In this document: one piece after another, positions 45,001-51,000 of the stretch
Layout: each line of letters opens with the position of its first letter
How positions within the stretch are numbered: the first letter of the stretch is position 1
From: Candidatus Lloydbacteria bacterium RIFCSPHIGHO2_02_FULL_50_18
GTDB lineage: Bacteria; Patescibacteriota; Minisyncoccia; Phycocordibacterales; UBA6899
Direction of reading: 5' to 3'
DNA: 64,000 nucleotides
Assembly: GCA_001821395.1 (NCBI GenBank)
Contig: MHLM01000014.1
Location: 1 to 64,000, forward strand
Made by a program: the position numbers

Positions 45001-48000
45001 AGAATTGCCGTAGACTGTAGTTTTGTAGGAAAGAAAAGAAATGTAAGGCCAAGTGCCTGCGCATAAATAAGCGAATCAAGGTATTGGGGAAATAAGAAGT
45101 GGAACGGGATGGGGAGCAGAGCAATATAGGCAATCGTAATCGGAATGAATATCACATATGCCTTCCATATTTTGGTATGAACCGCATTTCGCAGCTGGCG
45201 GGTACTTTTTTCAGCATATTTCGGCATAGCAAGCGTCGTCGTTGCTTTTAGCAGTGCTTTCATCGGTGCTGTGGTTGCGACCGCAAAGCCATAAGTTGCA
45301 AGTGCGATGGGACCCATGAGGTGCCAGACGAGTAACGAGTCTAGTTGGGTGGCTGATTGAGAAAATGCTCCGACCAAGCTGAGGCGTTTGCCATATGCAA
45401 CCGCGTCACCTGTATCAGTGTTTTGGGAGAGCGCCGGAAAGCGCTTGAGCACGCTGCGGTGAGCGAGATACCGGAATACGGTATAGGAAGCATAGTAAAA
45501 AAATATGATGACGATGACGTTTTTTGAGCAGAAGATGGTGATGATCAAAATGAGCGTTGCCCCCGCTTGCACGAGTGCGTTGTAGATTGCAGAAGGAATA
45601 AACTGTTTTTTTCCGGCAAAAACTGCAGACCAGAGAGAATATGCCTCGGAGAGTGGAAGGAATAATGCAACAATGAGTAGGGAGTATCCGATATCGGTAT
45701 TACCCATGAATATGTAGTAGCCACCGACGCCTATGGCTCCCAGTGATCCAAGCACCCCCCACGAGAGTTTTGCGGAGAGCGATTTCCTGTATGCCCCGAG
45801 TTCTCCCCGAGCGATAGCTTGCGTGAGCGAGGTTGGCATTCCCGTGAGTGTCGCAATGGTGAGAATCGAAACAATAGATAGAATGTATTTATATGACCCG
45901 TAAGTTTCTTTAGGTATGAGATTGGCCATTGCGGTCGCGAGGGCTAGTGCAAAGAGTGCGGAGACCACTTGTCCCAAAAAAATAGAGCCGCCCCCGGAAA
46001 GGAGATAGTGCATATCGATTCCGGTGCGCGCGTTCATGCCCTGCAAAAATTTCTCGATCCTGGGTGATTTCATGATGATGATAACCACAGCATATCAGCG
46101 AAGGTGGTGAGACAAAATATTATGGTTAGATCGTGTCAATTTAAAAATTTTCATAAAAAAATGATATTGCCATGTCGGCGATATCATTTTATGTTATCAC
46201 GATAATGCGCGAATGTTTCAGCAAGTCCTTGATCGAAATTCTTCATGGGTTTCCAGCCGAGCTCTTTTATGGCCTTGCTCGAGTCAGGGGCATAGCGGAC
46301 CCGCCTGCCGTAGCACGGGCAAGTATCGTGGCTAGTGCGGGTGCGTGAGATCATCGCGGTGCTCGTTGTCGACAGGGAAGGGGTTGTCAATTATTTGACA
46401 ATTAATCCTAACTTGGTTTACAATTACTTTACAATATGCTCACGAAAGACGAAATATTGAAGATCGGTAAAGCCAAGGGGAAGATATACACGAGTCAACT
46501 TGCGGCATCCTTCGGTGTTTCTCGGCAGTATGCGAGTGCCCTTATCGGAGCGCTTGTGCTTGATCAGCAGCTTATTAAAATAGGGTCAACGAGAAGCGCT
46601 TTTTACGTGCTACCGGATTATGCACGAAAACATCCCGAGATATTCCCTCTGTCGTACGCAAAAACATTCCGTAATATTGGACTGGAGGAACACAAGATAC
46701 TGAGTGACGTAGAGAGCGGGTTTTCAGCGTTGAAAAGACTGCCTGAAAATGTCAGGAGTATTTTTACTTTTGCGTTTTCCGAGATGTTGAATAACGCAAT
46801 CGAGCACTCGCGGTCAAAGATGGTGCACATTGAGGTATCGCTACGCGGGAAAACCCTCACGTTCATCATCGAAGATTCTGGGGTGGGAGTATTCAGAAAT
46901 ATCATGCAGAAGAAGGTATTGCACTCAGAGCTTGAGGCGATCCAGGATCTACTGAAAGGGAAGACAACAACGATGCCAACATCCCACTCGGGGGAGGGAA
47001 TATTTTTCACATCTAAGGTTGGTGACGCGTTCATCCTTGAGAGTTTTAATTATCGCTTAACGGTAGACAACAAGATCGAGGATGTTTTCATAGAAAGATC
47101 GACTCAAAGAAAAAAGGGAACGAGGGTCACTTTTCAAATACAGACAACGACCTCACTGCATCTTGGTGACGTGTTTAGAAAGTATACGAATATCGGGGAT
47201 GAGAGCGATTATGGATTTGATAAGACCGAAGTTCGCGTCAACCTCTACACATCTCTAGGAGTGCACATTTCACGCTCACAAGCACGCAGAATTCTTTCGG
47301 GCTTGGAAAAATTCAAAGTCATAGTTTTTGATTTCGACAAAGTGTCGGTGGTTGGTCAGGCATTTGCGGATGAGATCTACCGTGTCTTTGCTCGCAAATA
47401 TCCGCACATTACCCTTCAGGAGGTCAACATGTTTCCTGGAGTACGTTTCATGGTTGAGCGTGCGAAAAATGAGGCAAAGAAAACCGCGCAGTAGGGGAAA
47501 GGGGAATTCCTCGCGCGTGCACAATCCCACGGTAGTTGAGGTAATCCCACGCGATCATTATCTTCGCTCGTAGTGCTCAAACGTTTCTTCAAGTCCCTGA
47601 TCAAAATTTTTCAGCGGTTTCTAGCCGAGTTCCTTCGTGGCCTTGCTTGAGTCGAGGGCATAGCGGATGTCGTGGCCGAGGCGGTCGGTGAGACGAGCTT
47701 TACTTATCGTATATAATCGAATACAATCAAATGTACTAAATATATATGAAAGAACGCTTCCAAAAACGCATACCCATTTCGCAAGAAATACTCTCAAAAA
47801 TAACCCAGATCGATGAGCTGAAGGGGCACTGGAAAGGGGGGCTCGCCATCAGTCCGCAGATATTGGGTCGGCTCAAAAAATCCGTCATTATCACCAGCAC
47901 GGGTGCATCGACGCGCATTGAGGGATCGAAGATGACCGATGATGATGTCGAGCGGTTTTTGAGGGCGCTTAAGTCAAATCCACCCGAGAATCGCGATGAG

Positions 48001-51000
48001 GAGGAGGTCGCAGGTTATGCCGACCTCCTGGGTCGTGTGTTTGATAACTGGCAAAGCATGAAGCTCTCCGAGTCGCTCATTCTCTCTTTCCACGGCGTCC
48101 TTCTTCGTTACTCGAAGAAGGACGGGCAGCATAAGGGGAAATATAAGACAAAAGAAAATCTTGTTGTTGCTCGTAATTCAGAGGGCGAACAGGTGACGAT
48201 ATTCGAACCGACACCGCCCTGGCTTACAAAAAAAGAGATGGACGATGTGCTCTATTGGACACATGAAGCAATGGCTGGAAAAAAGCTTCACCCCCTTCTT
48301 GTTACTGCAAATTTCATTTTTGAATTTCTTGCCATCCATCCATTTTCTGACGGCAACGGTCGACTTTCTCGAGCGATTACCAATCTTCTCCTTCTTCAAT
48401 CCGGGTATGGGTATGTGCCGTATGTTTCATTGGAAGAAATCATTGAAGAAAGAAAAGATGAGTATTATTCCTCACTTCGCAAAACGCAGAAATATCACAA
48501 AACAAAAAACGAAGATATTAGTGCATGGCTCAGTTTTTTGCTGGATGTATTACTCGTGCAAGCAAAGAGCGCTAAAGAAATCATGGAGAATGACGATCCT
48601 ACAAAATTGCTTTCTGGGCGCCAAATTGAGATCTATGCACTCTTCGGGCAAGATGCACTTGCGGTGCTTGATATCAAAAAGAAGCTTAATGCTATTCCAG
48701 AGGTAACGATCAAGCAGGTGCTTGCGAGGCTTGTTTCACTCAGATTGATCGAACGGATCGGCCTGGGAAGAGCGACGCGGTATGTAAAATCAAAATAGTA
48801 TTGATACCGACTTAGTCATGGTATCGTCCAGCCACGATATTATTTTTTGCCATCTTTGTAGTGGGCGAATGTTTCTTCGATCCCTTGCTCAAAATCCTTA
48901 AGCGGTTTCCAGCCGAGTTCTTTTGTTGCCTTGCTCGAGTCAAGCGCATAGCGTATGTCGTGGCCGAGGCGGTCGGTGACGTATTCGATCATTTCATCGC
49001 CGAGTCCCGCGAGCGCGATGAGTTTTTTTGTGATATCGATATTCTCGATCTCATTGCCTCCGCCAAGGTTGTAAATTTCTCCCGCCCTTCCGTCGTGGAA
49101 TACGCGGTCAATACCTGAAACGTGGTCGCTGACATGTATCCAGTCACGGACGTTCTTGCCGTTCCCATAGAGAGGGACTTTTTTCCCGGCGAGCAGGTTT
49201 GAGATAAAGAGGGGGATCAGCTTTTCCGGAAACTGATTTGGGCCATAATTGTTCGAGGCACGCGTGGTGACCGTATCGAGCCCGAAGGTCCTGTTGTATG
49301 AGCGCACAATGAGGTCTGCAGAGGCCTTTGAGGCGCTGTAGGGGCTATTGGGGGCGAGGATATCGTCCTCTGTGCTTGCTGCGGCAGCTGCGCCGAGTGA
49401 GCCGTAGACTTCATCGGTGGAGACAAAATGAAAACGCTTCACCCCATATTTCCTTGCGCACTCGAGGAGGTTTTGCGTTCCGAGGACGTTGGTCTCGACA
49501 AAGATGCCGGGCCCGGTGATCGAGTTATCAACGTGGCTTTCCGCCGCGAAGTGAATGACATGAGTCGGTTTATATTCTTCAAAGATCTCCGCAAGTTTTT
49601 TTGCATCGCGTATGTCGGCTTTAATGAACGCATAATTGGGAAGCGTTGAGACGCTGATGTTGTTGAGGTCGGCTGCGTAGGTGAGCGCATCAAGGTTAAC
49701 GAATTGATAGTTCGGATATTGGGGTATGGCAAAATTCAGGTAGTTACTCCCAATGAACCCGGCACCGCCCGTTACGAGAATGGTCTTGTCGTAGGTCATA
49801 TTTATTGGGCTTTGGGTTTTTCACTAAGATGTTTTTCCTTCATGTAATTTGAGGCGGTCAGGAGACTATCGAACGTGCCGATGTCGAACCAGGCGCCCTT
49901 CACGCTTTCCGCCCTGAGCGTGCCTTCATCGACATAGCGATTGTTTACCCAGGTGATCTCGTATTCCCCGCGATCGCTTTTTGGCTGACCCTCCATTTTT
50001 GCAAACACGGTGTTGTCGTAGATATAGATACCGACAACCGCTAGGTTGGTCGCTGGGTCTTTTGGTTTTTCGATGATCTCTGTCACGCGCTTATTCTTGT
50101 CGAGAGTTGCGACGCCGAAACGCTCAGGGTCGTGCACTTCTTTCAGGAAGATCGTTGCTCCGGAAGTAAAATTTGCGACATGCAGGGCGATGTCGTCTTC
50201 AATGATATTGTCTCCGAGGTGGAGCACGACAGAGTCGTTTGCGATGAAGTCATGTGCGATACAAAGCCCCTGAGCAATGCCGCCCGGCTCGTTCTGTATG
50301 CCGTAGACGATCTGGATCTGATGTCCCGTATTTTTTGATTTGAAATCTTGCCCTGAACCGAGCACGCTCACGAAGTCATCGAGGTATTGAGGGGAGAGGA
50401 CGATCATGATGCGGTCGATCCCGGCGTTCACGAGTTTTTCGACAGCATGAAAGATGACCGGCTTGTTATACAGCGGCAAGAGGTGCTTATTGGTGATCTT
50501 GGTGAGCGGGTGAAGGCGTGTGCCTGATCCTCCTGCTAAAATTACGCCTTTCATGTTTGGTTTATTGTTACGTGCGAAGCTTGTTGTATATTATAGAAAA
50601 CAATGAATTTGCGCAAAAAGTATCAGGTTTTCTTGCGATGCTTAATGTGCGCGCGTGTTGACATTATTCACTATGTTATGTATTCTGCATACTAGAATTC
50701 TTCCAAAACCTCGACACTCACAAAGGAGATCGTAGTGAATCACATTCCAGATTTAGAGATCCTCTGTCTTCGCCACGGCAAGACCAACTACACCGAAAAG
50801 TTTCCCGACCTCACTCCTGACGGCATTCTCCACGTGCGCAAGGTTGCGACGGAAACAGTGCTTCCGTGGATCTTGAAGCATGGCATCAATCCGCGTGTGC
50901 TCGGCATCGTGGCTTCACCCGCACCACGCGCTCTGGGCACCGCGGCAAATGTGGCTGAAGTTATTGGGTATCAAGGGAAGATCCTGCCCCAAGGAGAAAT

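Follow-up and report, generated by a model that had tools for sequence, protein, structure and literature searches.

How does the end of one gene come to be present three times in succession, with an accessory gene in each interval? This question is raised by rfbB, the gene for dTDP-glucose 4,6-dehydratase, in the genome of a groundwater bacterium of the Candidate Phyla Radiation (CPR)/Patescibacteria (Candidatus Lloydbacteria). We analyzed a 64-kb stretch of this genome, hereafter the window, and compared it with other loci and contigs, which are labeled here with L-numbers. In the window, two remnants of the rfbB 3' end alternate with two cargo genes, cargo 1 encoding a protein with winged helix-turn-helix (wHTH), GHKL and STAS-like (DUF4325) parts and cargo 2 encoding a Fic protein. 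We consider it probable, with good confidence, that the array arose by serial import of cassettes that each carried a replacement tail for rfbB. That the cassettes accreted through serial Campbell-type insertion, with host homologous recombination as the favored enzyme, is a more specific proposal to which we give about an even chance.

Three rfbB tails and two cargo genes

A repeat search of the window revealed one repeat family with three 122-nucleotide (nt) direct copies, at 46202-46323, 47570-47691 and 48858-48979. The copies are spaced 1368 and 1288 nt apart, and the outer two are 70% and 84% identical to the middle one. The third copy is the last ~43 codons of rfbB (48840-48979). A tblastn search of the window with RfbB recovered the intact gene and two minus-strand fragments, each corresponding to the last 42 codons (Table 1), which confirms the homology of the three tails that had been proposed in an initial annotation of this DNA. 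Read along the minus strand, the order is rfbA, rfbB, the Fic gene (antisense), remnant 2, the DUF4325 gene (antisense), remnant 1 and wzx. Both cargo genes are on the plus strand in our list of open reading frames (ORFs), and wzx, rfbB and rfbA all run the opposite way, so the alternation of remnants with cargo that reads against the wzx and rfb genes stands as first described. The identities initially given to the Fic, wHTH-GHKL-STAS, rfbB and wzx genes likewise agree with Pfam, TIGR01181 and PADLOC matches, the N-terminal HTH match of cargo 1 being below the Pfam cut-off. The same arrangement is present in seven contigs from independent assemblies (ENA, NCBI and Logan).

The remnants had been called decayed. 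We compared the tails over 32 aligned codons and found instead that their differences from the live tail are almost only synonymous. At first, second and third codon positions, respectively, the live tail differs from remnant 2 at 2, 2 and 15 sites (dN/dS, the ratio of nonsynonymous to synonymous divergence, is 0.03) and from remnant 1 at 3, 3 and 13 sites, and the remnants differ from one another at 1, 5 and 14 sites. Across the tail pairs, dN/dS is 0.03-0.10 and the synonymous difference proportion, pS, is 0.57-0.70. This pattern is indistinguishable from that between working orthologs (dN/dS 0.07 for the window and L092). Remnant 2 contains a single in-frame TAG (plus-strand 47621-47623), and remnant 1 contains no internal stops. 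Since the differences sit at third positions and dN/dS is low, the remnants must have diverged while each was a functional rfbB end in some genome, and their displacement is recent. When the tails were compared with the 120 closest RfbB proteins in the database, each proved most similar to the RfbB of the three members of the same small clade, indicating that the donors were close relatives. On this evidence we take the remnants to be former working rfbB ends of close relatives, not decayed duplicates, and the codon-position pattern supports the earlier suggestion that each insert brought a replacement tail.

The closest other genome with a cargo 1 protein, GCA_043719805.1 (L007), encodes an RfbB that is 83% identical to that of the window and has the same His-phosphatase / rfbA / rfbB locus. 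There, an intact rfbB is accompanied by three minus-strand tail remnants (6964-7122, 7802-7909 and 9111-9218) that separate three cassettes: a PhdYeFM/ParE pair; a DUF4325 gene whose product has 81% amino acid (aa) identity to cargo 1; and, adjoining the intact rfbB, an LCAT cassette consisting of a gene for a 1040-aa LCAT-domain protein and two small ORFs. The four tails of L007 show the same third-position pattern, and remnant B has one stop codon. The two genomes have in common a block, 46380-47661 in the window, that is 74% identical over 1289 nt. This block contains the cargo 1 promoter, the gene itself and the tail convergent with it (remnant 2 in the window, remnant C in L007), whereas the tail upstream of the cargo 1 promoter lies outside it. 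Because the common block includes the convergent tail and excludes the upstream one, the traveling unit consists of a replacement tail and its cargo. The tail of a unit is thus the one that follows the cargo gene, contrary to the initial pairing of each cargo with the tail preceding it. Remnant 1 of the window resembles remnant A of L007 (78% over 123 nt, with a 26-nt insertion in both) and not remnant B.

In seven related lineages (L092, L093/94, L095/96, L181/182, L183, L011 and L038), whose RfbB proteins are 53-83% identical, rfbB has a single tail and no cargo, and glycan genes lie directly downstream. The rfbB-wzx junction therefore varies among relatives in the way that mobile insertions would predict, being empty in these seven lineages and holding partly different cargo in L007. 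Identical cargo fixed across distant relatives was not observed: none of 80 rfbB loci from other bacteria, among the matches listed (mostly 50-55% identical, from Bacteroidota/Firmicutes), has an extra rfbB tail. A degenerate DNA pattern for the tail, CTGGAAACCNNTNAARRATTTYGANCARGG, has no match in metagenome or viral contigs. Base composition, by which it had been hoped to set the cargo apart from the flanking genes, does not distinguish it. The cargo genes have a G+C content of 45-46% and a third-position G+C content (GC3) of 49-51%, within the 41-56% spread of this mixed locus, so composition is uninformative.

The features of the array are collected in Table 1. Pfam scans of the window ORFs show that the array is set, over the 64 kb, in a very large region for glycan synthesis, which contains numerous glycosyltransferases and methyltransferases. 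The rfbA gene stands beside rfbB in every relative, and the pair is co-transcribed in the window.

Table 1. Coordinates of the rfbB array and its borders in the window.
Feature	Position	Strand	Evidence or remark
wzx-type flippase gene	44823..46088	-	Pfam Polysacc_synt 1.3e-14; fixed outer border of the array
Remnant 1 (rfbB 3' end)	46184..46343	-	tblastn 46184-46309, 69% over 42 aa, E 4e-15
Cargo 1 promoter / iteron-like region, TTGTCAATTATTTGACAAT ... TTTACAATTACTTTACAAT ATG	46380..46435	+	Left end of the L007-conserved block
Cargo 1, wHTH-GHKL-STAS (DUF4325), 352 aa	46436..47494	+	Pfam
Remnant 2 (rfbB 3' end)	47558..47691	-	tblastn 47567-47692, 83% over 42 aa, E 6e-19
Cargo 2 promoter region	47692..47745	+	Promoter-like sites
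Cargo 2, Fic protein, 350 aa	47746..48798	+	Pfam Fic 4.9e-15
Intact rfbB, dTDP-glucose 4,6-dehydratase	48840..49799	-	TIGR01181 equivalog 411.9 bits, cut-off 365.1
Likely crossover block in rfbB, codons ~272-282, E-Y-V-T-D-R-L-G-H-D-I	48955..48986	-	Exact matches to remnant 2 and orthologs
rfbA, glucose-1-phosphate thymidylyltransferase	49802..50554	-	Pfam NTP_transferase 1.3e-54; fixed inner context of the site

The crossover block and the proposed order of insertion

Between the live tail and remnant 2 there is just one long exact match. It measures 25 nt (TCACCGACCGCCTCGGCCACGACAT; 48955-48979 and 47667-47691) and lies at the inner edge of the repeat, and the next 96 nt differ at 15 of 32 third positions. 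When the whole 960-nt rfbB gene is compared with the orthologs in L007, L092 and L093, the longest exact match, of 26, 30 and 22 nt, respectively, falls in the same block, and GAATACGTCACCGACCGCCTCGGCCACGAC (window 48957-48986) is identical in the L092 ortholog. Because the identity between the live tail and remnant 2 coincides with the longest match to orthologs, the block is the likely crossover site. Third positions in the block are near-invariant in seven orthologs; they are invariant in 5 of 8 codons, against 12% gene-wide, an excess that is not significant after correction for all windows. Our argument rests on the longest exact match and not on this excess. In L007, the end of the block is also where a 55-nt tract that is identical in the live tail and remnant B begins. 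The tails of this genome are mosaics, with identical tracts of 28, 21 and 18 nt in remnants C and A, indicating that exchange did not always occur at one nucleotide. Judging from these matches, crossover likely took place in or next to a 25-30-nt block that encodes E-Y-V-T-D-R-L-G-H-D.

Remnant 1 is made up of 42 tail codons and a stop codon, an insertion of 26 nt (46298-46323) and, at 46324-46343, the crossover block in degenerate form. The insertion, CTTGCCCGTGCTACGGCAGGCGGGTC on the minus strand, contains a small palindrome, CCGTGCTACGG, and is also found in L007 remnant A, where it again follows a degenerate block directly. In both genomes the oldest remnant has it precisely on the 3' edge of the block, and the insertion may be a recombination scar.

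In the model that we propose, small pieces of DNA from closely related Lloydbacteria would enter successively, each by a single crossover within the last ~130 nt of rfbB. Each piece would carry one accessory gene, its own promoter and a functional version of the final ~43 rfbB codons. A circle with block, tail and cargo that recombined once with the resident tail would yield the order body - new tail - cargo - old tail. The incoming tail would fuse to the resident rfbB body, so that the gene would stay intact, and the previous tail would be pushed outward as a remnant, leaving the cargo between two tails and reading against rfbB. Repeated events at the live gene would stack the cassettes with the oldest outermost. 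Before the insertions, wzx would, in the model, have been directly downstream of rfbB, and the original tail would now be remnant 1, beside wzx. The DUF4325 cassette would have followed with the tail that is now remnant 2. That tail would have been the live one up to the arrival of the Fic cassette with the present tail. No element-encoded integrase would be needed, because general homologous recombination of the host would act on the short identical block. The circular intermediate and the identity of the enzyme are the parts of this model that we infer.

Consistent with what was first noted, Pfam scans of the ~40 window ORFs found no integrase, transposase or fragment of either, and phmmer queries with tyrosine and serine recombinases had no match in the window. 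Precomputed annotations list no integrase or transposase within +/-10 kb in L001 or within +/-8 kb in L007. Genes or fragments from integrative and conjugative elements (ICEs) or integrative and mobilizable elements (IMEs) were found in none of the window, L001 and L007. Each unit of the window contains its cargo gene alone, without recombination or transfer genes. No relatives of either cargo protein were found in viral contigs, and we have no evidence of a phage carrier.

Cargo genes and DUF4325 loci elsewhere

The active-site motif of cargo 2, HPFSDGNGRLSR, as read from the translation, fits the Fic consensus HPFx[D/E]GN[G/K]RxxR. The protein matches the PADLOC SoFic model PDLC03963 with an E value of 1.9e-42 (its residues 43-347 align with positions 52-350 of the 361 in the profile), 8uqu_A, a Fido protein of known structure, with an E value of 2.3e-41, and the SoFic chains in the PDB with an E value of 1e-6. 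Class II (auto-inhibited) Fic proteins have the inhibitory motif (S/T)xxxE(G/N), and cargo 2 contains S-T-R-I-E-G within TGASTRIEGSKM, upstream of the Fic core. SoFic, a single-gene Fic AMPylase, has been reported as an abortive-infection defense system (10.1101/2022.05.11.491447; PMC12249575). Cargo 2 is like SoFic in its Fic active site, its N-terminal inhibitory motif, its HTH-like C-terminal region and its match to the PADLOC model, but it is only distantly related to the Shewanella protein itself, scoring 53.7 bits against the equivalog NF046030, whose cut-off is 550. By these matches, cargo 2 is a SoFic-like, putative defense gene. Taken with the toxin-antitoxin pair of L007, the cargo would fit the defense or addiction character suggested earlier. 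Cargo 1 matches no PADLOC family (0 at E <= 0.01).

Promoter-like sites for cargo 2 are found at 47688-47717 (10/12) and 47699-47727. A TATAATC-rich upstream region (for example, CGTATGTAATCGTATATAATC) is common to the Fic homologs of the window, L177, L179 and L180, and therefore the Fic gene appears to move with its own promoter, as cargo 1 does. Flanking repeats were absent from the contexts of the three Fic homologs in L177, L179 and L180, so we do not extend the claim of a gene-end cassette to the Fic family.

Cargo 1 matches Pfam DUF4325 (STAS-like, above the cut-off) with an E value of 1.3e-10, HATPase_c with 1e-7 and HATPase_c_2 with 1.2e-6. Its AlphaFold2 model has a mean predicted local distance difference test score (pLDDT) of 80.6 and is not a recombinase fold. 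The six best Foldseek matches in the PDB are all SpoIIAB chains, with E values of 1.5e-5 to 2.3e-4 and template modeling (TM) scores of 0.66-0.77 on the target; the best is 1til_E (E 1.5e-5, TM 0.75 on the target). Cargo 1 thus resembles the SpoIIAB/RsbW - SpoIIAA/RsbV modules in its GHKL domain, to which the anti-sigma kinase SpoIIAB is closest, and in its STAS-like C-terminus. It differs from them in that both parts are fused behind a winged HTH in one chain and in being a widely dispersed stand-alone gene with an iteron-like promoter. No partner gene is adjacent to it, and no sigma factor partner is evident. As modeled, cargo 1 looks like a fused, self-regulating partner-switching module, and it is probably a self-regulating sensor.

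The promoter-like sequence of cargo 1 is TTGACA-18-TACAAT (11/12; 46395-46424). Nearly all DUF4325-family genes (L097-L176) have a conserved upstream array of 2-6 direct 8-mers, ~11 nt apart, of the form TTGACAATnnnTTGACAAT ... TTTACAATnnnTTTACAAT followed by ATG, and the iteron-like promoter consists of TTGACAAT/TTTACAAT repeats. The 8-mers resemble iterons or tandem -35/-10 boxes. The array is probably where the protein's own HTH binds. The family has at least 6745 homologs that are 62-81% identical over their full length, mostly in Patescibacteria, and our literature search for DUF4325 returned incidental mentions only.

We found no rfbB tail at any of 80 metagenome loci that carry DUF4325 genes, which indicates that the DUF4325 gene is not tied to rfbB but to copies of a local gene end. 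At 16 of the 62 metagenome loci with enough flank, the single gene is bracketed by two direct copies of some local sequence. The copies are 23-110 nt long and 72-100% identical, with a start-to-start span of 1.1-1.7 kb. Among controls in unrelated loci, 10 of 667 genes gave a hit, all of them weak matches. Of 36 genes tested in the same way in the window, the two cargo genes were picked out, and of 45 in CPR relatives, one was, the L007 DUF4325 gene. The repeats derive from various targets: the last 105 nt of rarA in L098 (98% over 110 nt); the end of xth, in three copies, in L131; terminators in L112 and L175; and the last 27 nt of tRNA-Met in L099 (389-415 and 1700-1726), where the intact tRNA gene is just behind a 23S rRNA gene. 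In L146, the tRNA-Met 3' end with 11 further nt is repeated (9095-9132 and 10720-10757), once behind the DUF4325 cassette and again behind a second cassette with a 406-aa ORF. The sole case of a 5' end is L120, whose repeat is the promoter and first codons of a gene. Related DUF4325 cassettes are alike over only 50-90 nt before the ATG and 0-20 nt after the stop, and therefore no attC-type recombination site travels with the cassette. Recombinase genes are found near a few DUF4325 loci (L131, L167, L170 and L122).

Three of these loci have further repeat structures. In L120, a left flank of ~300 nt and a right flank of ~600 nt are both present twice, 4.9 kb apart (7634-9649 and 12588-14441), and enclose different genes, the DUF4325 gene in one case and a 295-aa ORF in the other; this looks like a cassette swap. 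In L144, next to purD, five copies of a ~70-nt unit (…CTCCAAAAGTTCGAAGATTGCCCGATCCGGGGAGCCA…) follow successive ORFs (7818-7860, 9023-9091, 10854-10925, 13136-13207 and 14854-14932). The 3' part of the unit looks tRNA-like, and ARAGORN and Rfam find no RNA gene in it. In L169, three small GIY-YIG-type ORFs of 84-85 aa surround the DUF4325 gene (3486-3743, 4873-5127 and 9139-9393); two are 95% identical over 320 nt, and a further copy of the 3' end of one ORF is located upstream of the DUF4325 gene.

A bolder generalization, which we hold to be rather unlikely, is that these loci represent an undescribed class of integrase-less, single-gene mobile cassettes of ~1.1-1.6 kb in Patescibacteria and neighboring phyla. 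Such cassettes would enter host gene ends (the 3' ends of rfbB, rarA, xth and tRNA-Met, and terminators) and leave target copies of 23-130 nt on both sides. The DUF4325 gene with its iteron-like promoter would be their hallmark. It might also play an active part, its product serving, for instance, as a DNA-binding accessory factor to recruit a host recombinase or to maintain the circle.

Competing explanations and related systems

In Campbell insertion, as with suicide plasmids, one crossover produces two direct copies of a fragment around the insert, and the target survives only if the fragment has the 3' (or 5') end of the gene. The rfbB array and the other DUF4325 loci show the same gene-end pattern. 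The laboratory version uses long identical homology, whereas the array has 25-130 nt of diverged homology; to our knowledge, natural repeated insertion-duplication with homology of this kind, building accessory arrays, is undescribed. We favor homologous recombination because there is no integrase, because the lengths and targets of the repeats vary and because the cassettes have no conserved ends. It is also favored by the nature of the sites (gene ends, terminators and a tRNA 3' end), which survive insertion-duplication intact, and by the facts that the donors are close relatives, that the block is the best identity available and that the L007 tails are mosaic.

Several points weigh against this account. 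A 130-nt stretch at 70-84% identity with one perfect 25-nt block is a very poor RecA substrate, and the model leaves unexplained how a cassette first acquires the end of a new target. In L007, remnant C has its inner boundary ~12 nt past the block, which leaves a single fixed crossover point unproven. The tails of any one genome have lineage-specific residues in common, a pattern that gene conversion could also cause, and such conversion would blur the history that we reconstruct. The rfbB array is known from two genomes only. For this strain, all seven contigs have the same array, and neither a circular form nor an empty-site variant nor an excision product was seen. Finally, the 27-38-nt tRNA-Met 3'-end repeats of L099 and L146 look like classical integrase attachment (att) sites.

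The last point leads to the strongest alternative, namely that a site-specific recombinase of the tyrosine or serine type, either trans-acting or lost since, built the same array from att-flanked, integrase-less units resembling cis-mobilizable elements (CIMEs) or degenerate tycheposons. The conserved rfbB block would then be the att core, and the rest of the tail would be carried only to repair the gene. This would fit the presence of a 25-nt identical block at the edge of a repeat whose remaining tail is synonymously saturated, the conservation of the block at the nucleotide level over orthologs, the DUF4325 cassettes at the tRNA-Met 3' end (two in tandem in L146), and the recombinase genes near four of the DUF4325 loci. 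Tycheposon tandem integrations (10.1101/2020.12.28.424599) and CIMEs (PMC7563491) provide precedents. However, no recombinase gene or fragment is found in the window or within 8-10 kb in two genomes, and many different integrases would be required for one cargo family to occupy over 10 unrelated targets, once a gene 5' end, with repeats that range from 23 to 110 nt. Related cassettes are alike only in promoter and ORF, leaving no conserved attP arm; the L007 mosaics imply variable crossover points; and the cassettes, each a tight unit of one gene, retain no leftover element genes. We regard a recombinase as a serious but distinctly less probable candidate than homologous recombination.

We find it very unlikely that the resident rfbB end was instead duplicated locally, through a long target-site duplication or a replication template switch, with the outer copies then decaying. 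The lineage-specific residues common to the tails of one genome, the near-identical repeats at some DUF4325 loci such as L098 and the variable repeat length would all agree with such an origin. A dead local duplicate, however, is expected to gather changes evenly over codon positions, whereas 70-80% of the differences between the tails are at third positions, with the low dN/dS given above and with synonymous sites near saturation, and the remnants together hold one stop, in remnant 2. For the rfbB array, local duplication followed by decay is ruled out by this codon-position pattern.

Gene remnants are common at the junctions of polysaccharide loci, and the locus is a large, compositionally mixed glycan gene cluster. 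The remnants might accordingly be leftovers of full-length rfbB paralogs or of O-antigen-type locus swaps in an old, fixed arrangement, with the cargo genes as ordinary residents. The divergence of the DUF4325 cassette between the window and L007 is similar to that of core genes (76% against 70-82% nt identity), as this would predict. We nevertheless give this explanation very little weight: all remnants begin within ~20 nt of the same point in the gene, the cargo differs between the two array-bearing genomes and is unrelated to glycan synthesis, and seven relatives lack any remnant. An assembly artifact has a negligible probability, for although the window is from a metagenome-assembled genome and the contigs of L004-L006, from the same strain, break inside the Fic gene, the arrangement recurs in the independent assemblies and in a second genome, and copies that are 70-84% identical cannot be collapsed or duplicated by an assembler.

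Arrays of related architecture have been described. In Streptococcus, CIMEs of 1.2-13 kb accumulate in tandem at the 3' ends of rpmG, rpsI, fda and rplL (PMC7563491). Like the rfbB array, they are cargo units without recombination genes, bounded by direct repeats from a host gene 3' end and stacked with the oldest farthest from the target. They differ in being decayed ICEs or IMEs in tandem with one, whereas the rfbB array has no ICE, IME, integrase, relaxase or fragment thereof; it consists of single-gene cassettes with their own promoters and a ~130-nt, synonymously diverged coding tail in place of a short identical att, and its host is a CPR bacterium. In Prochlorococcus, the tandem integrations of tycheposon islands are separated by partial tRNAs (10.1101/2020.12.28.424599). 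These share with the rfbB array successive integrations at one site, with newer units pushing older ones outward and partial target copies in between, as well as a cargo of defense and niche genes and a streamlined genome. Tycheposons, however, are 10-20 kb in size, with a tyrosine or large serine recombinase, often replication genes, and tRNA targets, none of which is present at the rfbB array.

Integron arrays also consist of stacked, ~1-kb single-ORF cassettes, each followed by a ~60-140-nt repeat, and their content varies between relatives. The rfbB array, however, has no intI or attI, and its repeat is a host coding end, not an attC hairpin with R and L boxes. Integron cassettes are mostly promoterless and oriented with respect to Pc, whereas the rfbB cargo has its own promoter-like sites and reads against rfbB. 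We rejected an integron array on three failed features: intI, an attC carried with the cassette, and promoterless, Pc-oriented cassettes.

Accretion arrays bounded by copies of a target gene 3' end, and integrase-less cargo units, are thus already known. What is new here is the CPR setting, the use of rfbB in a surface-glycan locus as the target and the absence of any parent element, together with tight single-gene cassettes, each with a promoter of its own and a full replacement tail of ~43 codons under purifying selection, and the family-wide association of DUF4325 with a gene-end-repeat architecture. CPR/Patescibacteria have tiny genomes and few recognized mobile elements, and we know of no conjugation in them. 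The array would represent a route by which they gain accessory and defense genes, in which a spare end of a housekeeping gene is carried along, the target is never broken and arrivals stack. If this route requires nothing beyond short conserved blocks and the recombination machinery of the host, it would offer streamlined genomes a minimal, "free" means of building defense islands. It also suggests a search rule for such islands, namely an extra copy of the last 25-130 nt of a gene ~1-4 kb downstream of it. The very large, uncharacterized DUF4325 family would thereby gain its first genomic context.

Two minor observations concern the window and its strain. In L004, L005 and L006, which are other assemblies of the same strain, the contigs end 480-670 nt into the Fic gene, which suggests strain variation or a repeated Fic paralog that breaks short-read assembly. 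Outside the array, an ORF of up to 403 aa (51255-52466, plus strand), situated between a His-phosphatase gene and an rmlD-like gene, has no Pfam match and has a G+C content of 56% and a GC3 of 67%, clearly above its neighbors. As listed, this ORF overlaps the gene before it by 170 nt; its true start is therefore probably located further downstream.

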